Shown here: positions 8,462-45,576 of the stretch, one piece after another | Numbering within the stretch: the first letter of the stretch is position 1 | Layout: the number at the start of each line of letters is the position of its first letter | Origin: Nitrososphaerota archaeon | Lineage (GTDB): Archaea > Thermoproteota > EX4484-205 > JAAOZP01 | NCBI GenBank assembly: GCA_011605725.1 | Contig: JAAOZP010000009.1 | Location: 102,351 to 166,350 of the forward strand | DNA length: 64,000 nt | Reading direction: 5' to 3' | Made by a program: the position numbers and the translations under genes | The notes under the pieces: generated by a model | Databases searched by the model: none | What the model was told of the DNA's origin: nothing | The model's input: the letters and a program-made list of their open reading frames with translations, nothing else

Positions 8462-8882
8462 GCTTCAGCCTAATAGGAGAACGTTTAAATGTCTTTTTCA
8501 ACCTCCGTTACCCGGTGTAAACATGCTATTTCTCCAAAGACTCGGTGAAGCGAAACTTTCTCTGGACTTTAAAGGCCTTTCTTGAGTTGCTGAAAGCGAT
8601 ACTCAAAAATATTTCTGGAAACATTCGCGGGCTGCTGAGAAACGTTTTCCTAGAACGCGTGGAGCTCCGTTTAGAAACCTGTTAAGCAGGAAGCTGAAAG
8701 CATAGCTAGAGAAACATGGCTTATCTAACGGATACTGGGTTAACAAAAATCTACGGCTCGCTTGAGTGTGCGTTAAGCAGGTTGATAGGGATCACGCGCC
8801 CTTAGCGACCCTCAGCACCATCCTTATCTTTTCAATCATAAAACATCTACGCTTAAATAGCTAAGCGAGCATTATCGGGCAG

Positions 8883-9725
8883 ATGAATAATCTGAGGGAG
8901 GAGTTCATAGAGCTTCTGGAGAAAGATAAGGAGTTCCGTTACGCAGTTGCAGGCTACTTAGGATTATCTGAGATTTTGAAGAGGCTGGACAGGCTGGAGG
9001 AGGGTCAGAAAGGGCTTTGGGAGAGCCAGAACAGGCTTTGGGAGAACCAGAACAGGCTTTGGGAAGAGGTTAAGGCCCTTAGAGAGGGCCAGGAGAAGCT
9101 GTGGGAAAGCCAGAATAAGCTTTGGGAGGAGGTTAAAGCCCTTAGGGATGGCCAGAACAAGCTGTGGGAGGAAGTTAAGAGTTTGAGAGAAGGCCAGAAC
9201 AAGCTGTGGGAGGAAGTTAAGAGTTTGAGAGAAGGCCAGAACAAGCTGTGGGAGAACCAGAACAGGCTTTGGGAAGAGGTTAAGGCTTTAAGGATTAACT
9301 ATAGGCGGTTGGATAGGACGGTGGAGTCCTTAAGGGACTCGATGGTACACGGGTTCGGCGAGTTAAGCAGGTTCGCCGGCTTGACTTTCGAGGAGTTCGC
9401 CAGAAGATTCCTATCTCAATACTTGAGGAGTATGAACGTTATTCCAAAGGATGCGGAGTTGAAGAAGGCGGTTATCGACGGTGAGGAGATAAACATGTTT
9501 TTCGAAAACCCTCTCATCGTCGGGGAGGTAACATCCCATGCTGAAAGCCTTGAAGAAGTCGATAAGCTTATGAGGAAAGCCGAGGCTGCTAGAAGCAAGT
9601 ATAAGAGGGAGCCGTTGAAATACCTAGTAGTCTTAACGGCTGGAAGAGAAATCGCGAAGGAAATAAGGAAAAAGGCAGAGGAGAGCATGATTGAACTGAT
9701 AATTGGGAAAGAGATAGAAGATTAA
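8883..9725 (+). CDS. coiled-coil repeat protein with C-terminal PD-(D/E)xK-like domain (DUF3782-type architecture)
   Basis: LE.D.EFRYAVAG.LG N-terminus, GQNKLWE/EVKALRE heptads, C-terminal DGEEIN...GEVT. Confidence 0.75.
   Translation: MNNLREEFIELLEKDKEFRYAVAGYLGLSEILKRLDRLEEGQKGLWESQNRLWENQNRLWEEVKALREGQEKLWESQNKLWEEVKALRDGQNKLWEEVKSLREGQNKLWEEVKSLREGQNKLWENQNRLWEEVKALRINYRRLDRTVESLRDSMVHGFGELSRFAGLTFEEFARRFLSQYLRSMNVIPKDAELKKAVIDGEEINMFFENPLIVGEVTSHAESLEEVDKLMRKAEAARSKYKREPLKYLVVLTAGREIAKEIRKKAEESMIELIIGKEIED
9003..9290 (+). repeat. intragenic 21/42-bp tandem repeats
   Basis: GGCCAGAACAAGCTGTGGGAGGAAGTTAAGAGTTTGAGAGAA exact at 9150-9191 and 9192-9233, partial third copy, and degenerate flanking units. 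Confidence 0.9.
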
Positions 9726-10129
9726 ACATTCACTCCGTATTTATTTTCATCATGGAATGAGAAACACGTCGGCTTTTTTCTAAGGTTCTTCCAAAGTATG
9801 TTTGCGCGAGGCCTCTTCGCGAAGCATGGAGGATGTCTAATTTTGATGCACGGGTTTGTTTCTCATCGTGGAAAACTTGTTTGAAGCATTTAAGTCTTGG
9901 CGCAATATCTTTTTTAAGGCGTGCTGATTGAAATCGCTTCCAATGTGAAAGACTTACGTTTCCACGTTTAAAAGAAAGACCCGGTTTTTGCGCATGCACA
10001 GGTGGTGCAGGCCAAACCCGGAAACTAAGCGGTTCTACTCTTGCAGGCGCTCCATGGTGAATGGAGGTGAAGCGTGCTAATAAGGACTTGTTGAGAAAAG
10101 GTTAAATAGTAATATGGTCTTTTTCCCAC

Positions 10130-10405
10130 ATGCCTGGTCTCAGGATTCAAATAAGGAGAGATTTAGAGGCTAGGTTCAGAGAAGCTGCGATGCGCAGGTT
10201 CGGCTATTCAAAGGGGGCTCTAAGCCGTGCTGCTGAAGAAGCTATTGAAAAATGGCTCTCCAGCATTGAGGAGGTTGTTTTTGAAGAGGATCCTGTCGAG
10301 GCTATAAAAGGACTGCTTTCAGACGTCAAGGTTAGCTCCGTCGAACTTCAGCACTCGGCTGCAAAGTCATGGTTCGAAGCTGCTTCTGAAAATGTACCTC
10401 GTTGA
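10130..10405 (+). CDS. vapB: ribbon-helix-helix antitoxin (VapB-like)
   Basis: FRE.AM..FG..KGALS.A.EEAI..W motif; overlaps the downstream PIN gene. Confidence 0.8.
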   Translation: MPGLRIQIRRDLEARFREAAMRRFGYSKGALSRAAEEAIEKWLSSIEEVVFEEDPVEAIKGLLSDVKVSSVELQHSAAKSWFEAASENVPR

Positions 10406-10796
10406 CACGAATATTTTTCTAGAAGTCATGCTTTCTCAAGCCAGAAGCAAAGAGTGCGAAGTCTTTCTGAAAAGCGTTAAGGAGGGTGTTTCAAAGGCGT
10501 TCGTAACAGATTTCTCAATATACTCCGTCATGATTATAATGTCAAGCCTTTCCAAGACGGATGAATTGAGAGTTTTCCTTTCAAGCCTTTCAGCGTATAA
10601 GGGACTTGCGATACACCGTAACGGGCTTAAAGACTTGTTGAGAGCAATAGGTATAATGATGGAGAAGCGCTTAGATTTGGATGACGCCATACAGTACTCG
10701 GCAGCTGTGTCGCTCGGGGTGAAAGCCATAGTTTCTTTCGACAAGCATTTCGACGGCCTGGAGGTTCCGAGGGCGGAACCCGCTCAGCTGATTTAA
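10392..10796 (+). CDS. vapC: PIN-domain toxin
   Basis: YLVDTNIFLE, DDAIQY and SFDKHFD motifs. Confidence 0.92.
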   Translation: MYLVDTNIFLEVMLSQARSKECEVFLKSVKEGVSKAFVTDFSIYSVMIIMSSLSKTDELRVFLSSLSAYKGLAIHRNGLKDLLRAIGIMMEKRLDLDDAIQYSAAVSLGVKAIVSFDKHFDGLEVPRAEPAQLI

Positions 10797-11252: not shown

Positions 11253-14200
11253 TTGAATCACCCGAGTTTGAAGAAAACATGCTCGATCGCAGCAATACTC
11301 GCGTTAATCCTGGTGGTTACGCCGCTAGCCGTAACGGCTCAGCAGGCGTACCCGCCTGGAGAATGGAAGTTCCAAATAGTCGACGACTGGGGAAAACCTG
11401 TTTCAAGCGCGGTAGCATACCTCTATAATAGCACTGTGCCAGTATCTTGGAGTACTCCGTGGAGCTTTGAAAACTGGCCCCTTATTAAATGGGGTGAGGC
11501 AGACGCCGATGGATGGGTAACAATACCTGAGCTTCCAGGAGACGCTTGGGACAGGTGCACAATATCAGGCAGAGAGATAAACTACACTCTCGTAATAAAG
11601 CTGAAGATAGGGACTGAAATAACTCCAATAACCATATTCAACGCGACAGTCCTCAGAATAGGCTATGCTTCAGGCACGCCGACGGCGATGGGCCTCTACA
11701 CCCTTCTAAACGCAACGACGATCCAAGGAACGTATCCGGGTAAAACATGGGTAACCAGCCCGGCTCAAGTGAACTTCACGAAAACCGTTGGAGGAAAGGT
11801 TTACGGAGGATACAAGGTTTGGCTATACTACGTTGCCCTCCAACCCCTGGATGAGCTAGGCTTCCCAATAACAGGCGCGACGCTCGAAGTAAGATATACT
11901 TCAGACTATAACGGCAAAACCTACATTGAGAACAAGCCTGTCAGCGCTTGGAAGAACAAGCTCTACGGAACCTACACTACCAACGGAACACTTGGAAGCG
12001 AGCTCGTCGTAGACCCCACATACATATACCATGCTAACTACCAGGTTGGATGGGTAGTCCTGAGAATACCCATGATAAACAGCACCACCGCATCCGACTT
12101 AGAATACAGGTCCTCGCTGGTAAGCAACCTGACTTTCATATGGAGGTTTAAGACCGGGACAGTCATAAACGTGACGAAATACTATGCTTTAGCCCCCATT
12201 GACTTCACTCCAACCTCCCCATGGGGACACCTTGTCGATGCTAATCAGCCTGCGGTCGGAAAATACTCTGACTACCTTGGAAACCTGATGGTCAACTCAA
12301 CGCACCAGGTTAACGCAACCGTGAGGTGGGTACCTATAGACCTGCTCGACTGCAACCGCAACAACTGGTTCACGATGAAGGCTGAGGTCTATGCTTTCGA
12401 CACTGCAGACAAGAACCAGTACATGCTCGCAGGCGTTAGAGTCGGCCCAGGCTCCTATGTTTTAAGGTATCCTGTTCCAGTTCCGCCCTATGGGAACATT
12501 ACTCTAGCGCTGGCTGTCGAATGGTACTACAGCGTAGTCAACGTTTCAAAGTGGAAAGTAGGATACACAGTATCGCCATACGAGATATACGATGAGCTTT
12601 CAGACAACTCGTGGAGCAAAGACGTATACGGAGTCCTCTATACTCCCTTGTACTCCTCTCCGGGTTTCACGCCTACGGGGATTAAGAACAACATGACCTG
12701 GGTGGACGTGAACTTCTGGAGCGCCGCAGAGCTTCCTCAGCAGCCAGCTGACTTCGCAGCAAAAATATGGCTTCCAGCAACAATAGGATACAGGAAGGCT
12801 GAGCCACTAACTGTGTGGTGGAACGGCAAGAATGGCTTTGTAGTACTGCCCGACATGGAGTACTATGCTGGTCCCAATCATGCCACGATAGATGAACTTG
12901 ACCCGTGGAGAATTGCATCCAATAAAGGATTCTGGGACTTTCACAGGCAAATGTCAATGGGCTGGGCTTACCCAGGATTCGCCGGTAGCGGCTGGCTTCC
13001 CACGAGGGAAGTAGGCTGGGTGGACTTCGAAGCATACTACGAGGGAGTTAAAGTCTTGGACACCTATGCTGAAGGAAAGAGCCTTAAGCTGGACTGCTGC
13101 GAAACCGATTTATCACCTTTCCCACCAAGCCCAGATACTGTTTGCCACTTCAACTTCACGCTGAAAATCTACGAGCTAGGGTTCCGCATAGTCTTCGAGT
13201 CATGCGGGCTGAAGATGGATGCTCCGACAGGGGTACCGTTCTTCTTCACGCATCCCAATCCTGAGATAGGGCTAGTTGGGCCGAAGGCTGTTAGCGAAGG
13301 AAAGGTTGATATTGTTAAGGCGCCGACTGGAAACTACAGTAACTTCGCAATAGTCTGGCAGATGAGCCTCCTGAGGCCCTATAAGATTCTCTACCTGCTT
13401 GACAACGGGACCACTGTAGAGCTGAAAGAGCCGATTAAGCTGACTGCGAACATGAGGAATATTCAGCTATACTTCAAGCTTTACAACCTTACTGTAGACA
13501 CTTGGAGCCAAGACCCGTTCAGAATAGTCAACGTGAACGTCACACTGTTCTCAGTTAGCGACTTCGGAATAGCTCCTGGAATAGGCATAACGAAGAGGAT
13601 GCTCGACCAGATAACTGATTCTAAAAGCATTTACTACAAGTATGTTCTCCCACCAGGCTGGAAGATCTATAAGACTGAGACGGATGCATACGGCTACCCG
13701 GTGGTTTACTACCATACTGACACTCAGACCAACTACTGGAATAAGCACCCGTCTTGGACATACCTGCCTGAGAAAGACTACTGGATATACGTGAGGGTTC
13801 CAGGTGGTAAATGGTACGATATTCCGGCCGACTCGCAGAAGGCTGTGAACGCCGGCTTTAGAGCCGTGGATGCTAACGCAACCCTGTACTGGAGCGGAGA
13901 CCCGTGGAACAAGCCGCTCCACCTGAGCGCCTGCTACGGCAACGACAACCCGTACATAGTTTACACCTACGTGTACAACCCGAAGATAGCGCTGAAGACG
14001 GCTTGCGGAGCACCATTAGTGTTCGACGAAACAATGAACTCCGCGTTAATACTGGCTGAGCCATGGGACAGTGGCAACCTGCTCTACTTCATGCAGCAGA
14101 TAGACCCGAATTCGCGGGTGACAATAGGTACGCCGAGCGGAGTAATAGCCGCACCGTACAACGCATACCTGGTTAGGAAGAACGCTACCGACAGTAATGG

Positions 14201-17200
14201 CGTCGTAACCCTCAGCTCGGTTAACGCTACGAGCGTCTCGCCGCCGAACGACCCAGACCTTTGGAACCCGACCACAGGATGGGTAGCTAAATACTACCCG
14301 AATCAGAGCAGGTACCTGATTGGGCAGAGCCCAGGCTCAGGCCCGATTAAGAAGACCACGCCGAAATACAGGTTCATGGTGTATTACAAGGGTGTCCTAG
14401 TCTACAACGAGTCCACGGTTTTGAGAAACCCGTACGATGGTAAGGAGCATACTCTAACGACTTCAGTCTATCCATACGTGTTCAGGGTTACGAACGACCC
14501 GCTTAAAGGCGGGACAGTCTTCGGAATAGCCAACATTAAGGTGACAGTGTTCTGGGCAGGGTTAAACGTCACATGGTGGCCTACGAAACACTTGACCTAC
14601 GAGACTGCGCCCATAGAGTTCTCACTGCTGAACGCCAGCAAGCTTAACAAGGGCTTCAACATGAGCGTAGTCAAAAGGCTCTGGGGTCCGAAACAGGTTG
14701 TGACAAGATACTTGGAGAACATACCTTACCAGCCTGTGCCACCCTACTTCAGTAGTATGGTTGTCGTAGAGTCAGCGTTAACCGACTCCAACGGGAAGGC
14801 AACCTTCCTAATACCAGTCTGGAACTACAGCATAACCCCGAAGATATACACGTATGTTGACGGCGATGACGGTGTAATCGGTGGAACCTACAAGGGAGGT
14901 CCAAGCAACCCGTGGAACAAGGCTCTTGGACCATTGTCGATAAACCTGATGACTGCTGGTGCAGCGGGTAGGACTGGAGCGCTCTTCGGAACACCCGTCT
15001 ACGCGAACTTCACAACCGTGCCGGGAGTGACGAACAACATTCCTGCCGGCGACGTTCCGAGGCTGGTTGGAGTGTTAACTGCCTCCGCTTACGGCAGATG
15101 GATACAGCACTCTATGAACGCGACAGGCCTGGTTAACACTGCCACGAAAACATGGGAGAACACTAGGGTTAAACTAACCTACTCAGATGGTTCAAGCGTC
15201 TACAAGGATGGTGTCTCGCTGAACACGACGTACCGTTCCGGCACCATTTACGGGACAAGCTGGGAGGCTGCAGTAGGCATGCTCAGCGGAGGAGCATACC
15301 AGCACAGGACTCCTGACAGCGAGACTGGGACAACAGTTTCTCCGCCTCAGCCGGCTGCAAACTGCTACGCTAAGGCTGAGGAAAGAATCATGGCTAACGA
15401 CATCGGCGTAGTCGTGAGAAACCTGGATAAGGTTGGGCTTCCAAACCAGAAGGTGACGATAACGAGGGAAGCAATATACGTGGACTCAACTAAGGTTGCC
15501 GACAAGGCTGTGCTGATGGAGGACTATACGCCGACGAAGCCTAACGCGGATCCGAGCGACTATTACATACTCTACCTAAGGTCGACGCCGAGCAACATCC
15601 TATGGGGCATCTACGACTTCACAGTTAAGACTGAGAACCTGACCAAGGGCATGACGAATACTCTGCTTAAGCTGAACGACCCGCAGTTCCTCGTTAAGAA
15701 GCTGGTAGGCGGAGCTGTAGACTGGAAGTCGGGCATAGTCTACCTAAACTGGACTGCAAGGCTGAGGGTGACGATACTGACTGAGGACGGCAGACCATTG
15801 GAGAAAGCATGGGTTTACGTCGTAGACGCTTACACGAGGGGCAACGTCACCGCTGCGATAACCGACACTTATGGGCATGCTGGGACACTGTTCGTCGGAA
15901 CAGGAAACGCTGTCCCACCGCTGATGATCGAGCCTGGAGACAGGGTTGACATAGGATTCAACCTGCTAAGAGGATGGTACTGGGTCGACGCGGACAAGAG
16001 GCTTACAGGAATAGCTGTAAATGAGGAGTGGGACATAACACCATATACTAAAGAGGTTCCGGCGCAGCCGACCGGAGCTGAATGGATCCAGAGCATAACG
16101 TATGGTGACAAAACTGGATGGGCAAGGTTCTACGGCAAGTACTACATCTACGTCTACTATAAGCCTGCTGGCTGCAGCGAAGTTCAGGGACCAGTGTTCT
16201 CAGAAGTAGTGTTCGACAGCTACACTGCTGAAGGCCAGTACCAGTACATATACCTTGGAATACATCCCGAGGCTGTTGCCCCGACAGCTGAGTATGCTGC
16301 AAGCCAGGCGAAGGACTATCGTGCGAGCGTGAGAGACCTTAGGATAAGCTTCATAGACTCCGCTGGAAGGCCTGTGACCGGTGTCACAGTGAAGGCTAGA
16401 CACCCAGTATACGGCTGGGAGAGCGAGCTCGCTAAAGCCCTCAGTGTTGAGACGAACACCGCGACGCTGAACAAGGTTCCGATGAAAACAGGTACAAGCT
16501 ACATGATAGAGGCTGAGTGGACAAGCAGGTACGGTACGAAGGCCACGGCAAAGGCCTCAGTAACACAGACTGAGACAACGATCTCGCTACCAATATACGA
16601 TGTTACTCTGAGGCTCCTAACCCCGAGGGGAGCACCATTAGTAGGTGTTCCAGTGAAGGTTGCCGGTGTTGACGTTGGAGCAACATCCGCAACCGGAGAA
16701 GTGGTGGTGCCTCAGATACCTCCAGCAACATATACGGTGGCAGCATCATGGCTGGATACTGCTTTAAGCCTGCCCTCGCTAACAGTGTCTGGACCAGGTG
16801 CAGTAACGTTGACGCCGAGCAACGTGCATGCTCTGACTGTCAGAGTGATAGGTGCTCAGGGACAGTCGCTTGAAGGCGCTACGGTGAAAGTGACGAAGGG
16901 CACTGTGACGGTTACGAGGCTGACTGATAAGGATGGTAAAGCTGAGATAGAGCTTCCTGACGCAAGCTACAACATTGAAGTCACGTACGGACAGTTCGGA
17001 AAGACTGACTCAGTATCCATGACTGCTGACACTCTTAAGACCGTTAACCTAGACGTGTTCGTAGAGTTCCTAGGCGTAGGCATGAGCATGTCCCAGTTCC
17101 TGCTGTTCATAGTGATGATCATAATCATCGTAATAGTGCTCGCCATCGTGGTGCACGAGTACCACATCTACAGGCGTAAGAGGCTTCCGCAGCTCTTCGG

Positions 17201-17222
17201 AGCACCGGCAGGACCAAAGTAG
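11253..17222 (+). CDS. very large surface / S-layer-like glycoprotein with C-terminal carboxypeptidase-regulatory-like beta repeats and membrane anchor
   Basis: Signal peptide, dozens of N-X-S/T sequons, repeated G.P..GA.V beta-sandwich motifs, C-terminal TM followed by RRKR, GGTGA SD upstream and T-tract downstream. Confidence 0.8.
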   Translation: MNHPSLKKTCSIAAILALILVVTPLAVTAQQAYPPGEWKFQIVDDWGKPVSSAVAYLYNSTVPVSWSTPWSFENWPLIKWGEADADGWVTIPELPGDAWDRCTISGREINYTLVIKLKIGTEITPITIFNATVLRIGYASGTPTAMGLYTLLNATTIQGTYPGKTWVTSPAQVNFTKTVGGKVYGGYKVWLYYVALQPLDELGFPITGATLEVRYTSDYNGKTYIENKPVSAWKNKLYGTYTTNGTLGSELVVDPTYIYHANYQVGWVVLRIPMINSTTASDLEYRSSLVSNLTFIWRFKTGTVINVTKYYALAPIDFTPTSPWGHLVDANQPAVGKYSDYLGNLMVNSTHQVNATVRWVPIDLLDCNRNNWFTMKAEVYAFDTADKNQYMLAGVRVGPGSYVLRYPVPVPPYGNITLALAVEWYYSVVNVSKWKVGYTVSPYEIYDELSDNSWSKDVYGVLYTPLYSSPGFTPTGIKNNMTWVDVNFWSAAELPQQPADFAAKIWLPATIGYRKAEPLTVWWNGKNGFVVLPDMEYYAGPNHATIDELDPWRIASNKGFWDFHRQMSMGWAYPGFAGSGWLPTREVGWVDFEAYYEGVKVLDTYAEGKSLKLDCCETDLSPFPPSPDTVCHFNFTLKIYELGFRIVFESCGLKMDAPTGVPFFFTHPNPEIGLVGPKAVSEGKVDIVKAPTGNYSNFAIVWQMSLLRPYKILYLLDNGTTVELKEPIKLTANMRNIQLYFKLYNLTVDTWSQDPFRIVNVNVTLFSVSDFGIAPGIGITKRMLDQITDSKSIYYKYVLPPGWKIYKTETDAYGYPVVYYHTDTQTNYWNKHPSWTYLPEKDYWIYVRVPGGKWYDIPADSQKAVNAGFRAVDANATLYWSGDPWNKPLHLSACYGNDNPYIVYTYVYNPKIALKTACGAPLVFDETMNSALILAEPWDSGNLLYFMQQIDPNSRVTIGTPSGVIAAPYNAYLVRKNATDSNGVVTLSSVNATSVSPPNDPDLWNPTTGWVAKYYPNQSRYLIGQSPGSGPIKKTTPKYRFMVYYKGVLVYNESTVLRNPYDGKEHTLTTSVYPYVFRVTNDPLKGGTVFGIANIKVTVFWAGLNVTWWPTKHLTYETAPIEFSLLNASKLNKGFNMSVVKRLWGPKQVVTRYLENIPYQPVPPYFSSMVVVESALTDSNGKATFLIPVWNYSITPKIYTYVDGDDGVIGGTYKGGPSNPWNKALGPLSINLMTAGAAGRTGALFGTPVYANFTTVPGVTNNIPAGDVPRLVGVLTASAYGRWIQHSMNATGLVNTATKTWENTRVKLTYSDGSSVYKDGVSLNTTYRSGTIYGTSWEAAVGMLSGGAYQHRTPDSETGTTVSPPQPAANCYAKAEERIMANDIGVVVRNLDKVGLPNQKVTITREAIYVDSTKVADKAVLMEDYTPTKPNADPSDYYILYLRSTPSNILWGIYDFTVKTENLTKGMTNTLLKLNDPQFLVKKLVGGAVDWKSGIVYLNWTARLRVTILTEDGRPLEKAWVYVVDAYTRGNVTAAITDTYGHAGTLFVGTGNAVPPLMIEPGDRVDIGFNLLRGWYWVDADKRLTGIAVNEEWDITPYTKEVPAQPTGAEWIQSITYGDKTGWARFYGKYYIYVYYKPAGCSEVQGPVFSEVVFDSYTAEGQYQYIYLGIHPEAVAPTAEYAASQAKDYRASVRDLRISFIDSAGRPVTGVTVKARHPVYGWESELAKALSVETNTATLNKVPMKTGTSYMIEAEWTSRYGTKATAKASVTQTETTISLPIYDVTLRLLTPRGAPLVGVPVKVAGVDVGATSATGEVVVPQIPPATYTVAASWLDTALSLPSLTVSGPGAVTLTPSNVHALTVRVIGAQGQSLEGATVKVTKGTVTVTRLTDKDGKAEIELPDASYNIEVTYGQFGKTDSVSMTADTLKTVNLDVFVEFLGVGMSMSQFLLFIVMIIIIVIVLAIVVHEYHIYRRKRLPQLFGAPAGPK

Positions 17223-17344: not shown

Positions 17345-18178
17345 TTGAGTCAAGGAAGAACATGCCCGAGGTGCGGTGCTGCAGTAAGCGTAGACGACGA
17401 GTTCTGCAGCCTGTGCGGCCTCCGCCTCCCGAAACCGGGTTCAGAGGAGGTTTTTGAAGAAACTGTTGAAAACAGGTCGGACTTGACGGAAGAGTATGCT
17501 CCTGAAAAGCCTCCTGTTAAAAAACCTGTGAAAACCATTAAGCCTGTTCAACGCAAGCCAGCCGCGGTTAAAGCCGTGCCGCCCAAGACTCTGGTTTTGA
17601 AAAAGTGTCCAAACTGCAACACTCCCGTCAGGGAGGACTTGAAGTTCTGCCCTAACTGTGGTTTCAACCTTGAGGTTGCAAGGATGAGGCTAAGAATGAG
17701 GCAGCAGGGCGTCCAGCAGAAATACTCGAGGAGAGAGTTCTTCAGCTTCGAAGGCTACCAGCTTGAAGGAGTCCCCATGACCGCGTTAATGCTGATAATA
17801 TGGGCTGTCTGGAACTTCGGGGTCGCGGTTGTTTCCTCAATGGGCTTCATCCAGCCGCAGCTTCCACCATTGCTCTCAATAGTTCCACCAGCCGTCTTCA
17901 CCACGCTCATAGGAGTTCTCTCCATACTCTCAGCCATAGGCCTCCTAATGGTTATACGCCCACTGTTCTACATTGTGCTTGCGCTCGTGCTTCTGGAGAT
18001 ACCTGTGTCAATAATGCAGATAATCTATGCTGCCTCCCCGCCCCCAACATCCCCCTCGCCGAGAGGTACATCGGTTTTCGAAAACTTCGCCGCCGGCCTA
18101 GTCGGCCTAGTCATAGTCATAGGCTTGACGATCCAGCTTCTAAGGGTCCACAAGTATTTCACGGGAGTGACTGTTTAA
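17345..18178 (+). CDS. double zinc-ribbon membrane protein
   Basis: CPRCG..FCSLCG and CPNCN..FCPNCG ribbons, a K/P-rich linker and four C-terminal TM segments. Confidence 0.8.
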   Translation: MSQGRTCPRCGAAVSVDDEFCSLCGLRLPKPGSEEVFEETVENRSDLTEEYAPEKPPVKKPVKTIKPVQRKPAAVKAVPPKTLVLKKCPNCNTPVREDLKFCPNCGFNLEVARMRLRMRQQGVQQKYSRREFFSFEGYQLEGVPMTALMLIIWAVWNFGVAVVSSMGFIQPQLPPLLSIVPPAVFTTLIGVLSILSAIGLLMVIRPLFYIVLALVLLEIPVSIMQIIYAASPPPTSPSPRGTSVFENFAAGLVGLVIVIGLTIQLLRVHKYFTGVTV

Positions 18179-18265
18179 ATGAACAGGAAGGTCGTGGCGA
18201 TAATCCTCCTACTCCTCTTCCTTATGAGCATGGTTGCAGGCATTATTCTAAGCATTTTTAAATGA
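18179..18265 (+). CDS. 28-aa single-TM small protein MNRKVVAIILLLLFLMSMVAGIILSIFK (not in ORF track)
   Basis: ATG directly abuts the upstream TAA; basic N-terminus followed by an uninterrupted hydrophobic helix. Confidence 0.6.
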   Translation: MNRKVVAIILLLLFLMSMVAGIILSIFK

Positions 18266-18295
18266 CTCCGCATCCCTAGGAAGCGATTCGCCGCT
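18249..18295. repeat. degenerate relic copy of the thrS 3' end (most diverged copy)
   Basis: taagcat..gactccgcatccctaggaagcgattcgccgct aligns by eye to taggcat..ggctcctcatcggcacgaagactattctcttgct at 20116-20162. Confidence 0.55.
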
Positions 18296-18504
18296 GTTTC
18301 TTCCATAGTCCCAGCTATAAATAACCAGGTTTTTTCTCATTACGCGGAAAACCGGATGAAGGATTTTTCGGAAGATGCTTGGATAACTTGCTAGTGTTGT
18401 TTCCTTAGGGTTTGTCTCTAACTGTTAGAAGCCGGTTCAACGCTGTCTGCTTTGCTTTAAAGGTGATGGGTGTTTAAACAGGAGGCTATTCTGGGAAAAA
18501 CGTT

Positions 18505-18530
18505 TATAAGGATTCCCGTTAATCCTTATA
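18505..18530. promoter_or_regulatory. perfect 10-bp inverted repeat overlapping the TATA box (putative operator)
   Basis: TATAAGGATT-CCCGTT-AATCCTTATA ending 10 bp before the ATG of an RHH-containing gene. Confidence 0.75.
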
Positions 18531-18540
18531 TGCGGTAACT

Positions 18541-18951
18541 ATGGTTAAGACAACCATTGAGGTCGACGAAGACCTTTGGAGGCGTTTCAGCCTGCTTGTG
18601 CTACGAGAAAGGGGTGACCGGAAAAAGAACGAGGTTATTGTCGAGATCCTCAGGGATTATGTTGAGCAGAAAGGCTTATTTGTTGACGACCAACAGCTAG
18701 AATCCATTCTTCGAATTGAAGAGGAGCGGGAGGTTTTTCTTAAAATCTGGGACAAGCTTATTCACGACCCTTTTTACAACGGGAAGTACGTCGCCGTTTT
18801 CCGGGGGTCGGTTGTAGGGTGCGATGAGGAAAAGGGGAGGCTGGCGGAAACAGTATATAAGAAGTATGGGTATGTCCCGATTTACATCGACAAGGTGGCT
18901 CCCGGCGAAAGAAGTGTGGAGGTGCCTTCACCCGAGTTGGCTGTCCCATGA
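18541..18951 (+). CDS. RHH + DUF5678-like protein
   Basis: N-terminal KTTIEVDEDLWRRF RHH; C-terminal Y.GKYVAV..G.VVG.D....L...VY.KYG..PIYI.KV. Confidence 0.75.
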   Translation: MVKTTIEVDEDLWRRFSLLVLRERGDRKKNEVIVEILRDYVEQKGLFVDDQQLESILRIEEEREVFLKIWDKLIHDPFYNGKYVAVFRGSVVGCDEEKGRLAETVYKKYGYVPIYIDKVAPGERSVEVPSPELAVP

Positions 18952-19319: not shown

Positions 19320-19380
19320 AGACGGTCCACGCGAGGAAATAACAACTATTGCGCAGGCATTATATGCCAAAGCTATATTA

Positions 19381-19428
19381 TTAAGCAGACCCGCTAGCTC
19401 CCCATCGGCACGAGACTATTCTCATGCT
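19381..19428. repeat. relic copy of the thrS 3' end
   Basis: 41 of 49 aligned columns identical to 20115-20162, including the stop codon. Confidence 0.9.
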
Positions 19429-22043: not shown

Positions 22044-22077
22044 AGGCCTCGTCTATAAAAACCTTCGTTTCAGGCAA

Positions 22078-31224: not shown

Positions 31225-31225
31225 C

Positions 31226-38338: not shown

Positions 38339-38971
38339 TTAGGACCAGAGCCTGCTAACCAGGTTAGTGAAACCCTGGTTCCCAACTAGGGCCGCCATGT
38401 AGAACCCCATCAGCCCCATTTCAATCCAGGCTTTAGCGAGTATCGGCATGAGGAGGGTAACTAGAAAGCTTGCAGCCGCCGGAGGAGCGAAAAGGGGAAT
38501 TATAACCATGAAGAAGAACACTGTAAAGAGACATTCCGGAACATACCCGAGAAGCGTGGAGACGAGAGTTAGCAAGCCTTTCCTCTTTCTCCCCATGATC
38601 CCGAGGCCCCTGCTGATCAGGCCTACTGACAAGCCTGTTAGCATCTTGCCAAACACGAAACCAGGCAGGAACAACGCCATCAACCCGCTGGTCGAGCCGA
38701 AGTATAGCCCGCTTCCAAGACCAGCGATAACCCCGACGGCTGAGCCCGCCAAAGGACCCCCGAAGAAGCCAGCTATCAGGGTCCCCATGTGAGACAGATC
38801 CAAAGCAACCTGCCCCCAGTTTAAAACTGTCACAGAAGCCAGGAACAGAATATTGCTTAAAGCCCCCATCATGCCTACAAATGCTACTCTACGAGCCCTG
38901 CTAAACACAGGTAGAGTGTTTTTCCCAGCCCTTCGAATCCCTACTTCCTTTACAGGAGAAACTTCAGCCAT
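38339..38971 (-). CDS. ECF transporter substrate-binding (S) component
   Basis: A....AL, D.S......G...GP..G...G motifs and about 6 TM segments. Confidence 0.8.
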   Translation of the reverse strand: MAEVSPVKEVGIRRAGKNTLPVFSRARRVAFVGMMGALSNILFLASVTVLNWGQVALDLSHMGTLIAGFFGGPLAGSAVGVIAGLGSGLYFGSTSGLMALFLPGFVFGKMLTGLSVGLISRGLGIMGRKRKGLLTLVSTLLGYVPECLFTVFFFMVIIPLFAPPAAASFLVTLLMPILAKAWIEMGLMGFYMAALVGNQGFTNLVSRLWS

Positions 38972-39100: not shown

Positions 39101-39370
39101 GTAGACCTAGTCTCGAAACCGAAGATGGAAAGCTGATAGTTGTAGAGGTTAAATCGACTTTAGATCTCGAGCTCATTCCTAACCGGTATGACGATGCCAT
39201 AAAGTCCCTAAAAGAAGATCCAGGGTACATCGGGCTGATTAAGAAGTACGGCGTCATACTGGGGGAAGGAGCACCGCCGAGGAAGGACGTTGAAGCTTAT
39301 AGCCTGCGCGACATGTTTCCACTTAGATGCGAAGGTGCTTATAATATGGATCTTGGAGGAGGTTCCGTGA
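39101..39370 (+). pseudogene. frameshifted PD-(D/E)xK nuclease C-terminal remnant
   Basis: VDLV/ETEDGKLIVVEVKST catalytic motif split by a frameshift. A second shift gives IACATCFHLDAKVLIIWILEEVP*, which ends 2 bp before the next ATG. Confidence 0.6.
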
Positions 39371-39372
39371 GT

Positions 39373-40113
39373 ATGAATGAAGAATCGTCTGAGGATATGT
39401 TTCTGAAAAGGTTAGTGGAATACATGAACAAACGCTATAAAAAGGAACATGAATATTTCGTCATAAAGCATTCCGCCACGGAGCCTGTGACATCATTCGA
39501 TGGAAAGAAACGGAAGAAAAAGTGGGAGATTACTACGGGAGGATGGACTGTCCCTATTTTGGAGGGGTATTCCGACGGGGAAGTGTTCATCCTTTCCGAC
39601 AGCAAATATGAAATTGATGATGCTCTATCTGAGACCATATATAAAATGTTGTCGGAAACCATCCCGGGGTATTGGGACATGAGCCCCGATGAACACTATG
39701 CGCTTAAGCGGAAGGAGTACGAGGAGGTGGTGAGGAAGCTGCCCGACAGGAGAACCTGGGATGAGCTTAAGCAGAAGTATGGGGGCATAATAGCTTGGCT
39801 GGATTATCATGACGAAGCTGCTCGCGAGGCTAGTGAGAAAACGGGTATCGAACTTATCCATTATATACCTGCTAGAGGTGAATCGATCGGAGGTGAATTC
39901 ACGATCTTCTACTCACACTTCAACTCAAGTGGGATGAGCTGCGATGAGGTTATGGGGAGAATTGAGAAGGCGCTTGACGCAATAGACATTGCAAGCAACA
40001 AGGTTGACCTATACCTCCTCCCTACGCAAGAAGAGTTCAAGAAACGTCTCGATAAATTCCACGAGTTTTGCAAGCGTAAGGGCTATGTGAAACGCAGGCC
40101 TTCATCAGACTAA
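39373..40113 (+). CDS. hypothetical acidic/aromatic-rich protein, candidate immunity protein
   Basis: GGAGG SD before ATG 39373; directly follows the nuclease remnant. Confidence 0.6.
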   Translation: MNEESSEDMFLKRLVEYMNKRYKKEHEYFVIKHSATEPVTSFDGKKRKKKWEITTGGWTVPILEGYSDGEVFILSDSKYEIDDALSETIYKMLSETIPGYWDMSPDEHYALKRKEYEEVVRKLPDRRTWDELKQKYGGIIAWLDYHDEAAREASEKTGIELIHYIPARGESIGGEFTIFYSHFNSSGMSCDEVMGRIEKALDAIDIASNKVDLYLLPTQEEFKKRLDKFHEFCKRKGYVKRRPSSD

Positions 40114-40245: not shown

Positions 40246-41280
40246 GTGCGGAACTTGCTTTTCGACCTCAGGCCAAAATCATCCAGGAGCGACCTATTCA
40301 ACAGGGAGGATGAGCTTAGAGAGCTCGACAGGGCCGTTAGCCGCGGATACCCGCTTACGCTCGTGCTGGGGATCAGGAGGATTGGGAAAACGAGCCTCGT
40401 GAAGGCTTTTTTGGAGAAGCATAAGGGGGTTTACATAGATGCTAGAGGGGTTTCAAGACGATCCGAACTCTATGAGAGGATAGGCGATGGCCTCTACAGC
40501 TCCCTCAGCAGGACTAGAAGGCTGTTAGAGGGCATAAGGGGAATAAGCATCGCGGCTGCCGGTGTTGAAGTAAGATGGAGGGGAAGCGATTCCATAAGCT
40601 TCACGGGACTCCTCCAAGAGATCAATAAAAAGAGCGGGAGATTCATCCTCGTGATTGATGAGATACAGTCCCTGAGGCCTCCCTTATCCGCTGAGCTCAG
40701 AAGCCTTGTCGCATACTCCTACGACAATCTGGAAAATATATCCGTGATTATATCCGGCTCTGAAGTAGGCCTGTTAAGAAGCTTTCTCGGCCTCGATGAT
40801 GCTTCCTCACCGCTTTATGGAAGGTATGTTCACGAGATTCACGTCGACAGATTCGCAAAGGACCTGTCCAAAGAATTCTTGACAAAGGGGTTTAAGGAGG
40901 AAGGGTTGAAGCCGCCCGGCGAAACAATAGAGGAAGCCGTGGAACTCTTCGACGGGATCGTCGGATGGCTAGTGTTCTTCGGAAGATCCTACTTAGACGG
41001 GACAAGAGACGTTGAGAAGATTTCCGGCATGGCAGTGAAGCTGGCCCTCGATGAGTTGAACAAGCTAAGTCCAAGAGAGAAGTCCGTCCTCAAAGCCATA
41101 GCGGAGGGTGCGAACTCATGGTCTGAGGTCAGGAGCTTTATCTCCGAGAAGAAAGGAATCGTATTACCCAAATCAACATTAACAAGGATCATCGACAAGC
41201 TTGAAATGATGAGCATTGTAAAGAATTATGAGTTTCTCGATCCCATATACAGGAAGGCATGTAAGAGGCTGAAGCCTTAA
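40246..41280 (+). CDS. archaeal AAA-type ATPase with C-terminal wHTH
   Basis: LFD.RPK, LF.RE.E, G.RR.GKTS, IDE.Q, SGSEVG and DP.Y motifs. Confidence 0.9.
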   Translation: MRNLLFDLRPKSSRSDLFNREDELRELDRAVSRGYPLTLVLGIRRIGKTSLVKAFLEKHKGVYIDARGVSRRSELYERIGDGLYSSLSRTRRLLEGIRGISIAAAGVEVRWRGSDSISFTGLLQEINKKSGRFILVIDEIQSLRPPLSAELRSLVAYSYDNLENISVIISGSEVGLLRSFLGLDDASSPLYGRYVHEIHVDRFAKDLSKEFLTKGFKEEGLKPPGETIEEAVELFDGIVGWLVFFGRSYLDGTRDVEKISGMAVKLALDELNKLSPREKSVLKAIAEGANSWSEVRSFISEKKGIVLPKSTLTRIIDKLEMMSIVKNYEFLDPIYRKACKRLKP

Positions 41281-41378
41281 CCTTTCTCTGGATTTCATTA
41301 GCAGGCGCCAACCCATTAAGACTGTTAAAAAAGGCAATCAAGAGAATTGAAAGCTCTGAAACATCTAGCGCTCACGCT

Positions 41379-41437
41379 GGAGGTGAATTCACGATCCTCT
41401 GTTCGCACTTTAACTTAAGCGGATGAGCTGCGACGAG
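41379..41437. repeat. degenerate copy of an internal segment of the 39373 gene
   Basis: GGAGGTGAATTCACGATC exact, continuing ...CACTT.AACT.AAG.GGATGAGCTGCGA.GAG as at 39889-39948. Confidence 0.85.
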
Positions 41438-41445
41438 AAGCGCGC

Positions 41446-41697
41446 GCTGCGTTATACATCAGGATGAGAGACGGCGATATCGTCGATAGTATCGAGGTCA
41501 GGGAGAAGTTGATCGTTGACTTTGACAAGAATGGTGAAGTAATTGGCATCGAGGTGATAAACTTCTCGAAATCGAAAATAGATATCGGCGGCTCCTTAGC
41601 GCGCGGGTTCAATCCTGAATTTCAAGATTTTTCCTCAGTAGCGTTTTGCCTGCTCGTAAGCCCGATAAGGAGTGTTTCAAGGTTTAGAAGAGTTTAA
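41446..41697 (+). pseudogene. DUF2283-family protein, 5'-damaged
   Basis: ALYIR...G.IVDS.EV.....VDFD..G..IGIE motif; no intact start upstream of ALYI. Confidence 0.7.
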
Positions 41698-41725
41698 AAA
41701 GCCTTGTTCACGAGCCTTGTCAGGC

Positions 41726-42607: not shown

Positions 42608-43641
42608 GTACTGTTCAAGGCTGGAAACGGCTTTTCGCAGTTTTGTCCGGCGAGCACGACAGGCTTCCTGCTGCCGAGGTCGAAGCCGTTTTCGAGGCTG
42701 AGAATGTTCCCAGGATCGTCCTAGAGGGATTCACACAGGTCTACAGGTTCACTGCACCTTTAGAGCCTGCTTCAAAAGCCTTTAAGAGACTAGCCTTATC
42801 ACACTTCCTGTGTGAGGAGATAGGAGTCTTCAAGCAGGATGTTTCCTGTGATGAAATAATTGGCAAAGTAGTGGAGGCAGGATTAAACGGGAGCATTGCG
42901 TTCAGGGTTAGGAGGATAAGGTGCAGTATTTCTCCTGAGAAGGCTTCGGCTCTTGAAACAGGGTTGAACAGGAAAGCGTCGAAAACCGTGCGCCTCGTCG
43001 TGGACTTAGAGAATCCTGAGAATAATTTGGAGGTTGTGTCTTCAAACGGCTTCATAATTGTTGGCAGGAGGGTTTGCAGCAGCGCTAGGAGAAGCGTAAT
43101 GGCTAGGAGCGGCGGCAGGAAACCGTTCTTCCATCCTTCAAGCCTTAAGGTTGAGCTTGCAAGAACAATGCTGAACCTCGCTAGGGTCAGGGAGGGAAGT
43201 ATAGTTGTAGACCCGTTCTCCGGAACAGGGACGGTACTGGTTGAAGCGTGTAAGCTGCAAACTCATCCGATAGGGCTGGACGTGGATCCTCTGATGGCCT
43301 ATTCCTCCCGTAGAAACTACAGATGGTTCCAGACACTTGTCTTCCAAGTCTTAGGGGATGCTAGGCACATGCCTTTCAGACGCGCCGACGCTGTTGTTAC
43401 GGATCCGCCTTACGGGAGGAGGGCTTCAACACATGGCTTTGAATCCCTAAGGCTTTACGAGTGCTTCATAAAGGAGGCTTCGAGGATTCTCAGAGATGAA
43501 GGGTGGCTTGTCTTCCTAGCTCCAAGCAGGCTGCATGTTGAAGAAGCCCTGGAGCATAACGGCTTTAAGCTTAGGGAAACTTTTCTCATAGAGGTTCACT
43601 CTAATCTGACTAGGAAGCTACTGGTAGCTTTCAGGGGGTGA
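42604..43641 (+). CDS. trm11: tRNA G10 N2-methyltransferase (THUMP + MTase), probable CTG start
   Basis: LSGEH..LP.AE, PFFHPS, DPF.GTG and TDPPYG motifs; CTGA overlap with the prs stop. Confidence 0.88.
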   Translation: MSTVQGWKRLFAVLSGEHDRLPAAEVEAVFEAENVPRIVLEGFTQVYRFTAPLEPASKAFKRLALSHFLCEEIGVFKQDVSCDEIIGKVVEAGLNGSIAFRVRRIRCSISPEKASALETGLNRKASKTVRLVVDLENPENNLEVVSSNGFIIVGRRVCSSARRSVMARSGGRKPFFHPSSLKVELARTMLNLARVREGSIVVDPFSGTGTVLVEACKLQTHPIGLDVDPLMAYSSRRNYRWFQTLVFQVLGDARHMPFRRADAVVTDPPYGRRASTHGFESLRLYECFIKEASRILRDEGWLVFLAPSRLHVEEALEHNGFKLRETFLIEVHSNLTRKLLVAFRG

Positions 43642-44553
43642 ACTCTATGCTTACCAGTTCGAGGAGAACCTCTTCTTCTAATCCGAGAAAGCAGGATAAT
43701 GATGTTAAGGGAAGCGCGTTCACCGGCTTATCATTCACGGTAATCCTGCTGTTGTTGAATGTTCTAAGGAATCCAGGTATTCTCATGCTTGTTATTATTC
43801 CAGTGTTTTTTTCAATGAATACGCTGGGCGTGCTCCATACGGTGTTGTTGCAGTAATATATTATTTCCAGCGTGTCTTTGCCCGCAATCTTAGAAAGAGC
43901 TTCATACACGCTCCATATCTGAGGCTTAGCGGGAAGCTCGCTTACCCACCATGTTCGATTAAGCTCCGGGATACATGCCTTTCCCTCCTTAAGATAGATT
44001 AAAATCGTGAAGATTTTGGATGCCCACACTGGTGACGGTGGTGGATAACTGCTTATCTTTGGCTCAAAAACTCCAAGAGGGATGAACTCAGCGTTGAAAA
44101 GGATAATCCTTTCCTCCAAGGGTTGGAACAATGGCAGCAAAACCCCTACGTCCTTTCCCTGCCAGTAGAACCTTTCAGTGGTCGCATCATATTCGAAGAC
44201 GGCGCATTTTCTAAACTCTCTGAAAATCCTTTTCCCGTCCTCGGTATAAACAGAATGCCCTACAACATAGATTGTAAAGTTCAAAATGTAGGTTTCTCTG
44301 CTTCTCTGGATCTCCAGGTTCAGAGTCGCGTTACGGCCAGCGATTTCCCTAAGCTCCAGAACTTCCCGGGCTCGATTTGAATAAGACCGTGAATAAACTT
44401 ATACTTGAGCCTTAGAATCTTGTTTTCCCCCAACCAGCTGATGTATTTGGGGTTTTGAGGAGCAGGATGCTGCGGGTAAGTCCAAAAAAGGATTACTGTA
44501 GCTGGAGCAATGATAATAGGAATTAAGAGGATGATGCTAAATCTTATTCTCAC
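43631..44553 (-). pseudogene. secreted/membrane-anchored hypothetical protein split by one frameshift near 44360-44380
   Basis: The 77-aa signal-peptide ORF and the 217-aa ORF join through an open frame EVLELREIAGRNATLNLEIQ. Confidence 0.6.
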
Positions 44554-44649
44554 CTCGTCCCCACTACTCCTGTTCTCAGAACGTATTTGGAGCCTATTAT
44601 AAGCCTTACGGAGTTAAACATTATATTCTGCGAAGCTATTAATAGGAAC

Positions 44650-45576
44650 GTGTTGAAGAAGAGCCAGCCGTTTGGGAGACTAGTCTTCCTCGGAACGTCT
44701 GCAGCAGTCCCTACAGTCAGCAGGAGCCACCCTTGCATAGCACTCTGGTGGAGGGGGGAGATACTTCTCTTCGACTGTGGAGAGGGTGCTCAAAGACAGT
44801 TGATGATCGCCAGCCTCAGCCTTGAAAAGATATCAAACATTTTCATAACCCACATGCATGGAGATCATGTTCTTGGGCTTCCAGGGCTACTTATGACGAT
44901 GACTCTTCAAAACAGGAGGAGGCCTCTCAACATATATGGTCCGAAAGGGCTTAGATCGTTTGTTGAATCCTGCCTGCCGATGATATTCTACCAGCCTAGT
45001 TTCCAGATCAGCATTAACGAGGTTGAGAATGGTCTAGTCGCCTCCGGCAGGAAGTATAAGGTTTATTCGTATGAAGTCAAGCATTCTGTTGAATCCTACG
45101 CCTACTGTTTCAAAGAGGACGACAGACCGGGCAAGTTTAATGTTGAGAAGGCTGAGAAGCTCGGCGTTAAGCCTGGGCCATTAAGGAGCATGCTAGTTGA
45201 GGGTAAGACGGTAATGCTTGAAGACGGTAGAATTATTAGGCCTGAGGAGGTTGTTGAACCACCCCGTCCCGGGGTTAAAATCGTCTACACTGGTGACATG
45301 GGGAATACTCCTGGCTTCGAGGAATTCTGCATGAATGCTGATATTCTTATTCACGAGGCTACTTTCGATGAGAGCATGGGAAGCGAAGCCAGTAGTCTTC
45401 AGCATTCAACCTGTGTTGAGGCGGCTAAACTGGCTGCGACTGCACGTGTTAAGAAGCTCATACTTACTCATGTAAGCTCCAGGTATGGTGATGCCTCAAT
45501 ACTGATTGAGCAGGCCAGGAGGTTTTTCCAAGAAGTCCAAGTTGCTGAAGACTTTCTATCTATCGAGATTTTTTGA
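44650..45576 (+). CDS. rnz: ribonuclease Z
   Basis: FLGT.A..P, FDCGEG.Q.Q, THMHGDH, PGP arm, HEAT, HST and TH.S.RY motifs. Confidence 0.96.
   Translation: MLKKSQPFGRLVFLGTSAAVPTVSRSHPCIALWWRGEILLFDCGEGAQRQLMIASLSLEKISNIFITHMHGDHVLGLPGLLMTMTLQNRRRPLNIYGPKGLRSFVESCLPMIFYQPSFQISINEVENGLVASGRKYKVYSYEVKHSVESYAYCFKEDDRPGKFNVEKAEKLGVKPGPLRSMLVEGKTVMLEDGRIIRPEEVVEPPRPGVKIVYTGDMGNTPGFEEFCMNADILIHEATFDESMGSEASSLQHSTCVEAAKLAATARVKKLILTHVSSRYGDASILIEQARRFFQEVQVAEDFLSIEIF

Follow-up and report, generated by a model that had tools for sequence, protein, structure and literature searches.

In eukaryotes, double-strand breaks capture filler DNA and acquire templated duplications through end joining (Ku/Lig4, polymerase theta) or aborted synthesis-dependent repair, and LINE-1 insertions are flanked by target duplications of variable length (L1 endonuclease). 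We know of no comparable break-capture pathway described in archaea, and the eukaryotic pathways add no fixed palindromic linker. Archaeal integrative elements enter gene ends: of 68 such elements in Thaumarchaeota, 14 lie in 3′-distal parts of protein genes and 39 in tRNA genes, and crenarchaeal att sites are 29–69 bp long (PMC6563490). In bacteria, the type VI secretion system effector–immunity arrays of Vibrio cholerae and the orphan C-terminal ends of Rhs and contact-dependent inhibition (CDI) systems are displacement arrays, for which a model of homology-facilitated illegitimate recombination exists (PMC5361080). Here we analyse a 64,000-nt stretch of DNA from a Brockarchaeota-type archaeon of hot springs (the window, G000:C19:102351–166350), in which small accessory inserts lie against the 3′ end of thrS and the 5′ end of elp3, each bracketed by a direct repeat of the adjoining gene end. 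The source genome, G000, is a metagenome bin of 2.23 Mb in 20 contigs; G001–G016 and further G numbers denote relatives (bin completeness 70–94%), and C numbers denote contigs.

As in eukaryotic break capture and LINE-1 insertion, arbitrary DNA has been captured at this locus, the duplications vary in length as they do when ends are offset or extended, and there is no site specificity. With integrase elements bounded by attL and attR the locus shares direct repeats of a gene end flanking the insert, a gene left intact, tandem accumulation and empty sites in relatives; it differs in having no integrase, inserts that are mosaics of sub-element fragments, long and variable repeats, targets of unrelated sequence, and a palindrome at the joints that is new to the target (PMC6563490). 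Displacement arrays are alike in their entry at a conserved gene, the old end kept downstream as an orphan, the integrase-free array and perhaps a recombination tract in the anchoring gene, here elp3 (PMC5361080). There, however, the incoming end encodes another functional variant and the hosts are transformable bacteria, whereas here new and old ends have the same sequence, promoter-bearing 5′ ends are struck as well, a palindrome that looks as if written marks the joints and the hosts are archaea. Integron cassettes differ in depending on an integrase and in their junctions, which here are a bare 10–12 nt palindrome rather than a 60–150 nt attC site (no attC model was run). Nor do the inserts look like insertion sequences or transposons, as they hold a 345-nt tnpB fragment only and have no fixed short duplication, although no search aimed at terminal inverted repeats was made. 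They were also without element-sized cargo of replication, virus or plasmid genes. No description of integrase-free duplicative insertion of the kind proposed here was found in the literature searched.

A sequence-only reading of the window had claimed six repeat sets, in each of which a working gene end or promoter faces a degenerate copy of itself across an insert. Each claimed pair was aligned locally and compared with 200 dinucleotide-preserving shuffles, and the window was searched against itself by BLAST with a word size of 7. The gene-end duplications were partly confirmed, being real for a subset of the claimed sites. Those at the thrS 3′ end (20115/19381, 84% identity over 49 nt, z = 15) and the elp3 5′ end (31461/29949, 73% over 152 nt, z = 33) were matched by none of their shuffles, but the other sets did not exceed them. 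A supposed middle elp3 copy at 30821 was at chance level (z = 0.6). The trm11 pair (43606/44627) gave z = 0.5, and G002 joins 43668 to 44583 with zero overlap. For 8816/9731 the value was z = −1.2; G002 is without window positions 8534–9480, and the true borders of this G000/G002 indel are 8533 and 9481. The thrS 5′ pair (22027/23001) gave z = −1.1, although a real insertion is present there with an imperfect duplication. The ECF-S pair (39028–39049/40112–40132, 22 nt, z = 3.1) was reached in score by 3 of 200 shuffles, which is marginal given six tests. Beyond the strongest cases, then, scores were at the level of the shuffles, and the pattern is not general within the window.

The history of the thrS 3′ end was read from 16 species of the genus. 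G002 has a single thrS end, which aligns to both copy A (beside the gene body) and copy B (downstream), and the flank to the left of B (19370–19389) continues into the native flank of G002. Thus B is the original end, and it is copy A that preserves an intact thrS. The sequence GCTAGC containing the native TAG stop is kept in copy B, G002, G016 and G006; as we read the sequence, TAG has become CAG in working copy A, so that ThrRS is four codons longer and stops at a TAA on the repeat border. The insert between A and B (insert 2) is absent from G002, G016, G007 and G006, which provide the empty, single-copy site, and its small open reading frames (ORFs) have no Pfam or NCBIfam match. Insert 1, further downstream, is common to these four species and G000 and is missing in seven other relatives. 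In G009, G012, G001, G013, G003, G004 and G008 the zinc-ribbon gene and thrS meet directly at their stops, and in most of them the two stop codons overlap. A third thrS copy had been placed at 18249. It scored only z = 1.9 against the window's own copy, but positions 18255–18292 were recognised when the ancestral-type thrS end of G009 was the query (score 15 against 7.6 ± 1.2, reached by 1 of 500 shuffles); the G012 query was weaker (25 of 500) and the G013 and G004 queries were at chance level. It therefore appears that thrS holds three nested ends from two successive insertions, and that the triple read there earlier was essentially right.

At elp3, an alignment with 12 relatives revealed a TATA-like AAATTTAATAAG and a conserved block ending TACTGGGCTGC upstream of the gene; a conserved 170-nt element upstream of elp3 proved to be the gene for ribosomal protein S30e. 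In G003, G004 and G013, S30e and elp3 lie about 270–400 nt apart, with a single copy of the elp3 5′ end, and in other species they are separated by 1.2–3.5 kb. In G000 the remnant, copy C, is flanked by the palindrome TAGCGCGCGCTC at 29936–29947 and by GCGCGC at 30092–30097. This remnant is 95% identical in G002, as is vapCB at the same locus; vapBC homologues 74–77% identical occur at other loci in G013, G016 and G033. Past 30845, G002 reads directly into an intact second vapBC pair and the palindrome is absent. G002 has the whole of the second vapC gene (vapC2), of which G000 has a fragment; the C-terminal part of vapC2 also adjoins elp3 in G016, G012, G007, G010 and G006. The tnpB fragment is the sole TnpB match above threshold in G000 and is 69–81% identical to multi-copy elements of other families (G022, G024, G037, G032). 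Other species carry different duplications at this site: G010 has its own, longer elp3 5′ remnant, the remnant in G011, G014 and G015 ends 4 nt earlier than copy C, and in G016 it is the S30e 3′ end that is duplicated, at 98% identity. The elp3 site was thus struck independently several times at differing end points, which argues against a site-specific enzyme. G002 has in addition a head-to-tail junction of an 80-nt vapB 5′ piece, the palindrome and copy C, a duplication joint that the palindrome closes with no insert present.

Several properties are common to both sites. The intact copy lies beside the gene body and the decayed copy is always distal, on the native flank; the expected decay of the displaced copy is seen as a 1-nt deletion in thrS copy B and the loss of the ATG in elp3 copy C. 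Copies A and B of thrS share states unseen in other species, and so do copies A and C of elp3, which fits duplication within the lineage. Both sites were struck more than once, in agreement with the suggestion that inserts accumulate at hotspots. The Rfam (gathering threshold) and tRNA scans of the window placed no RNA gene under any repeat. The inserts had been described as discrete cassettes, which they are not: they are mosaics of fragments, such as the 345-nt tnpB piece, a PIN gene tail and the 80-nt vapB piece. Those in the window measure 0.69, 1.37 and 1.42 kb and contain a vapBC pair, an ATPase, gene fragments and unannotated small ORFs.

The elp3 region is also a recombination mosaic. 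Compared with G002 in steps of 100 nt, G000 is 71–96% identical in Nop5 (84% overall), 94–96% in S30e and 90–100% across copy C and vapCB; there is zero homology from 30847 to 31246, identity is 88–98% from 31247 to about 32046, and the rest of elp3 is 68–83% identical. The breakpoint near 32046 corresponds to about position 450–480 of elp3; within the gene, the first ~450 nt are 89–95% identical to G002 and the remainder 66–82%. In a 12-way comparison the 5′ 450 nt of G000 elp3 group with G002 and its relatives and the 3′ part does not, being somewhat nearer to G004, G011 and G015. This profile indicates that recombination within the core genes on either side transferred the whole array between lineages, and since the tract takes in copy C, the recombination was two-sided.

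A further pair, missed by the sequence-only reading, joins 39872–39948 to 41365–41437 (85% over a 60-nt core, 77 nt aligned, z = 23). Between its copies lies an archaeal ATPase gene that is found at other loci in G002, G007 and G010. At the thrS 5′ end, the 1.09-kb insertion is missing in G009, G003, G004 and G013, is carried inverted in G002 (94% identical), and is flanked by an imperfect duplication of about 14–20 nt (22024–22043/23124–23146). The Trm11-like methylase and tRNase Z genes, separated in G000 by an insertion with no flanking duplication, are adjacent also in G003, G004, G005, G011, G014 and G015.

To place these sites in the genome, G000 was compared with itself in 9-kb chunks, with CRISPR arrays removed and a repeat spacing of 0.2–6 kb. 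Direct repeat clusters outnumbered inverted ones 47:7. Tandem paralogues, in which each copy falls within a long ORF, make up about 22 of the 47 direct clusters. Where one copy did not lie in a long ORF, 25 pairs were direct and 5 inverted (binomial 3 × 10⁻⁴); for pairs associated with the palindrome the numbers were 14 and 2. As random local capture would give 1:1, the duplications must stem from the geometry of the join rather than from random capture of nearby sequence. In about 10 pairs the remnant lies beyond the very gene end that is duplicated, and two pairs have the opposite geometry. Repeat lengths range from 41 to 253 nt. One case outside the window is at the 3′ end of tldD, where a 41-nt repeat (G000:C1:63832–63872/66030–66070) surrounds a 2.2-kb insert splitting the tldD–pmbA pair; the insert is present in six species, and G009 and G016 have the empty, single-copy site. 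Further pairs are a 253-nt 3′-end repeat at C1:46840, whose host gene has no orthologue in the relatives, and a 5′ repeat at C4:33162.

The tldD repeat has two further features. It is 100% identical in G000 and 88% in G002, although the insertion is common to six species, pointing to gene conversion or to another, later event in G000; and the tldD remnant also forms the upstream region of pmbA.

A key feature missing from the earlier account is a palindrome at the junctions. The motif (T)AGCGCGCGCT(A) occurs 88 times in G000, against 1.2 expected from dinucleotide frequencies, and has no conserved flanks beyond T...A. ORFs cover 90% of the genome, and half of the GCGCGC sites fall outside them. 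With one mismatch allowed there are 267 palindrome sites, clustered at spacings of 50–1600 nt and mostly intergenic. A palindrome lies within 25 nt of the repeat boundary in 14 of 25 remnant-type pairs and in 2 of 22 paralogue-type pairs (Fisher 8 × 10⁻⁴; random expectation 6%). In the window, palindromes are within 10 nt of the breakpoints of G000/G002 homology at 28925, 29936 and 30845 and about 20 nt away at 20103; at 28925, G002 has 2.8 kb more. The GCGCGC at 20103–20108 is 6 nt from thrS copy A, and a second palindrome is inside insert 2 (19576–19585). At 30845 and 20103 A(GC)nT stands at the joint and is absent from the unbroken homologue in G002, and the same holds for the G002 TldD joint when compared with G009 and G016. 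There the palindrome abuts tldD, and TA plus the first A of the palindrome form the stop codon.

The palindrome is confined to one subclade and is lineage-specific. The 12-mer was found in G000, G002, G016, G007, G008, G006 and G009, at one site each in G010, G012 and G023 (another genus), and in no other of 41 genomes. A pre-existing attachment or target site was rejected as an explanation, the palindrome being absent at the empty thrS and tldD sites. It is not part of the cassette either, as vapBC homologues occur in genomes without the 12-mer. No relevant description of the palindrome, or of Brockarchaeota with mobile genetic elements, was found in the literature searched. Palindrome-bearing genomes are mostly 2.0–2.3 Mb and most others 1.2–1.8 Mb, a hint only, as bin completeness differs.

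One gene may follow the palindrome in part. A divergent primase-like ORF (G000 C7:378918–379793), or fragments of it, was present in seven palindrome-bearing genomes and in none of eight genomes with zero 12-mers. It is missing in G009 (4 sites) and G010 (1 site), and its distribution also follows phylogeny. Fragments of the gene lie 0.5–8 kb from tyrosine integrase genes at G002:C5:11677–15827, G002:C63:43–8582 and G008:C1:62555–63935, and the family may travel on integrated elements.

Enzymes that could account for the insertions were not found. Pfam scans of all ORFs in 7.6–46 kb of the window detected no integrase or transposase in the hotspots, and the whole genome of G000 contains one tyrosine recombinase (PF00589, on C17), zero serine recombinases and one tnpB fragment. 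This bears out the statement of the sequence-only reading that the inserts encode no integrase and only a tnpB remnant. The hotspot contigs of G002, G016, G007, G008 and G011 carry zero integrases, and in G016 no integrase was found at all, yet its S30e 3′ end is duplicated. Two 401-amino-acid (aa) ORFs near the TldD insert were considered as the TnpB of an IS607-like element and rejected, Pfam identifying them as an HTH_3 protein and a glycosyl hydrolase-like protein.

The explanation we favour, although with somewhat less than even confidence, is that the bracketing repeats are target duplications from a break-and-rejoin process in which end joining captures DNA, and not the work of a mobile element's own enzyme. 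A chromosome would break near or inside a gene end, and end joining would capture whatever DNA is available, such as foreign fragments, toxin–antitoxin pairs or remains of dead transposon genes. A short GC palindrome, A(GC)nT, would often seal the joints in this subclade. We infer that the joined chromosomal ends overlap by tens to hundreds of bases, which could arise if two genome copies broke at offset positions, if an end were extended on a sister copy ahead of the joining, or if a staggered break were filled in. Where the break falls in a needed gene or a tightly packed pair, only overlapping joins that rebuild an intact gene end would survive. The ancestral arrangement is compact in this sense, as thrS and the zinc-ribbon gene have overlapping stops and pmbA starts directly at the tldD stop. 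The product would be a gene with an intact end, the insert and the orphaned old end, and the structure usually observed is an intact end, (palindrome), insert, (palindrome), orphan end, and then the native flank or another palindrome. The orphan would decay and be trimmed by later palindrome-sealed deletions, which could give the palindrome–remnant–palindrome pattern; deletions of this type are common here. Old joints may be re-used, creating hotspots, and homologous recombination through flanking core genes would move whole arrays between species. The core of the earlier proposal, recombinase-free duplicative insertion at gene ends with a decaying displaced copy and hotspots, holds, and of the two routes it offered, gap-filling of a long staggered cut, or overlapping ends, fits best.

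A more specific version is conceivable but on balance rather doubtful: that the Brockarchaeota subclade practises a recombinase-free cut, overlap and paste, an archaeal end-joining gene capture in which newly written A(GC)nT seals the broken chromosome ends through a linker-writing enzyme of its own, any fragment might be caught between them, and offset ends would duplicate the target so that a gene struck at its end survives.

Several findings weigh against break and rejoin. The overlap of ends is deduced from the products, not seen, and the enzyme route likewise. Joints without a palindrome include that between thrS copy B and the insert, both G000 TldD joints and the joint beside the G016 S30e remnant. 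Palindrome-free G011, G014 and G015 have duplicated gene ends too, as does G010, which has one 12-mer, so the duplication step cannot depend on the palindrome. Long duplications are uncommon: of the 11 indels that separate G000:C19 from G002:C65 along about 50 kb, the thrS insertion is the sole one to carry a long duplication. In five 3′-end cases the proximal repeat boundary is 0–14 nt past the stop codon, for which our model needs selection in a compact genome; a boundary exactly at the stop codon was rejected as a mechanistic rule, as the native thrS stop is 14 nt inside the repeat. In G011, G014 and G015 the elp3 remnant is native-like (84.5% identical to G003 over 304 nt) and the working 5′ part is divergent over about 600 nt, alongside a second S30e with the old S30e decayed, which looks like import of a donor allele. 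Finally, all genomes are metagenome bins, in which rare misassembly is possible, but two bins show the elp3 structure, two the TldD duplication and six its insert.

The elp3 allele of G011, G014 and G015 is best read as a donor segment with one illegitimate joint, which resembles the displacement model for Vibrio and Rhs arrays (PMC5361080). It speaks for the alternative of one-sided-homology import, a process like homology-facilitated illegitimate recombination, which we consider unlikely, though less so than the other alternatives. Here a linear piece from a related genome brings the gene end together with the DNA next to it; homologous recombination takes place within the gene body, and the far end of the piece is fused illegitimately inside the recipient gene end, so that the working end is donor and the remnant native. 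The recombination breakpoint inside G000 elp3 would suit such a process, as would the block from copy C to elp3, which ends in vapBC2–promoter–elp3, the normal arrangement in G016 and others. Repeat boundaries near the stop are natural under this model, the outer ones lying where conserved gene sequence stops. Recombination tracts are visible in elp3 of G000 and of G011, G014 and G015, and thrS has no clear one. The donor, however, must already have the insert beside the same gene end, and the first insertion is therefore left unexplained. The thrS A/B and elp3 A/C copies look like sister sequences, and the G000 mosaic is explained by two-sided recombination in which copy C itself was transferred at 95% identity. 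In bacteria such events are said to be rare (PMC5361080), and no archaeal account was found in the literature searched.

Campbell-type integration, the other route offered by the sequence-only reading, is improbable. A small circle with the insert and a copy of the gene end would enter by a single homologous crossover and might leave again through the repeats. The final structure would be the same; a palindrome at one of two insert borders, as in most cases, fits one closure joint and one crossover, and the vapB–palindrome–copy C junction of G002 is expected from a circle or tandem dimer. Homology of 41–150 nt is, however, short for a crossover, the palindrome-free border at thrS and C1:46840 adjoins the remnant, which would put the insert inside the donor gene, and the insert and gene end must have been linked in the donor beforehand.

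Decayed integrase elements, which would have entered gene ends or tRNA genes with a replacement end (attL/attR) and later lost the integrase and most cargo, are less credible still. Archaeal elements do target tRNA genes and the 3′ parts of protein genes (PMC6563490), and palindrome-sealed deletions are common here. Two loci elsewhere in the genome would fit. On C9 a tRNA 3′ half plus flank (G000:C9:60604–60681) is repeated 5.5 kb downstream (66136–66219), the remnant being palindrome-flanked on both sides; this could be an old integrase event, later trimmed. On C17 a gene 3′-end repeat (6287–6353/8403–8469) stops about 200 nt short of the single tyrosine recombinase gene of the genome (8672–9895), which is outside the repeat-bounded segment. 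Integrase elements may explain these two cases, but not those of the window: six genomes yielded no integrase inside or close to any hotspot, the targets do not resemble each other in sequence, the repeats measure anything from 41 to 253 nt, the 0.7–2.2 kb inserts are mosaics without element genes, and promoter-bearing 5′ ends are duplicated too. That there is no common process, only a mixture of chance matches, tandem paralogues and assembly artefacts, is scarcely tenable and largely refuted: three to four of the six claimed cases are indeed at chance level and the tandem paralogues are numerous, but the confirmed pairs reach z = 15–33, relatives have single-copy empty sites, the same structures occur in independent bins, direct orientation is in excess and palindromes are enriched at the boundaries.

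Some other features of the window and its relatives were noted (Table 1). Two coding tandem arrays are present, one with a 21-nt period (34221–34607) inside an acylphosphatase-fusion ORF (33930–34703) and one with 21/42-nt units (8984–9293) inside the coiled-coil ORF. G002 carries a 3.7-kb insertion (G002:C65:53758–57452) at window 33558–33564 with a 7-nt direct repeat, CCGCGTT, an ordinary target duplication of the transposon or element type. Proteins of about 200 aa with a weak RecX_HTH1 match recur beside insertion sites, at 22078–22674, in the tldD/pmbA insert (G000:C1:63964–64581) and at G000:C7:336443–336927.

Table 1. Features of the window, with positions counted from its first nucleotide
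Feature	Position	Strand	Basis or remark
KaiC-like gene	7643–8461	minus	Pfam
Coiled-coil repeat protein	8883–9725		Pfam
vapBC pair	10130–10796		Pfam
1989-aa surface-type protein	11253–17222		Pfam
Zinc-ribbon protein gene	17345–18178		Pfam
Oldest thrS 3′ remnant, heavily decayed	18255–18292	minus	beside the zinc-ribbon gene stop
Insert 1	18293–19380	plus	136-aa ORF and retropepsin-like aspartyl protease (18948–19319; Pfam)
136-aa ORF and retropepsin-like protease	18541–19319		Pfam
thrS 3′ displaced remnant, copy B	19381–19428	minus	z = 15; 1-nt deletion; on native downstream flank
Insert 2, G000 only	19429–20114		686 nt, GC 0.43; two unannotated small ORFs
thrS 3′ end, working proximal copy A	20115–20162	minus	84% identical to copy B
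thrS	20115–22043	minus	642-aa ThrRS ORF
Insertion at thrS 5′ end, 1.09 kb	22033–23123	minus	holds the RecX_HTH1-like 198-aa gene
RecX_HTH1-like gene, 198 aa	22078–22674	minus	Pfam, weak match
CDP-alcohol transferase, PadR, S26e, proS, RNase HII, fibrillarin	between RecX_HTH1-like gene and Nop5		Pfam
Nop5, then DUF1294	27493–28494 (Nop5)	minus	Pfam
Ribosomal protein S30e	29655–29828		Pfam
elp3 5′ remnant, copy C	29949–30093	plus	ATG and several bases lost; palindromes on both sides
VapC (PIN) and VapB	30133–30862	minus	VapC 30133–30603 (PF01850); VapB 30536–30862 (NCBIfam)
Palindrome AGCGCGCGCT	30845–30856		exact end of G000/G002 homology
tnpB (Cas12f1-like TNB) captured fragment	30853–31196	plus	PF07282, 3.6 × 10⁻⁹; no element ends
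Second PIN gene (vapC2), C-terminal fragment	31226–31417	plus	
elp3 promoter, leader and first 44 coding nt, working proximal copy A	31461–31607	plus	z = 33
elp3	31564–33162	plus	ORF and Pfam
ECF-S, preceded by gatE and gatD	38339–38971 (ECF-S)	minus	Pfam
266-aa ORF	39313–40113		contains repeat copy 39872–39948
New pair, copy 1	39872–39948	plus	inside the 266-aa ORF
Archaeal ATPase	40246–41280		PF01637
New pair, copy 2, displaced fragment	41365–41437	plus	cut off by palindrome 41439–41448
DUF2283 and PRPP synthase	between ATPase and Trm11-like methylase		Pfam
Trm11-like methylase	42643–43641		Pfam
Insertion between Trm11-like methylase and tRNase Z, 0.9 kb	43669–44582	minus	no flanking duplication
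tRNase Z	from 44587		Pfam
Palindrome sites	19576, 20103, 22903, 23057, 28925, 29936, 30092, 30845, 41439		

These results bear on the open question of how small accessory modules such as toxin–antitoxin pairs move in archaea without a mobility gene. The locus and its relatives provide before and after states for several insertions, and no element-encoded enzyme is needed to connect them. Target duplications of 40–250 nt protect genes that are essential or tightly packed, and the lineage-specific signature of the joints is searchable. If the break-repair reading is true, a repair pathway, and not mobile elements, would account for part of the size of the clade's larger genomes, and the palindrome scars could be used as markers to date and count gene-gain events.

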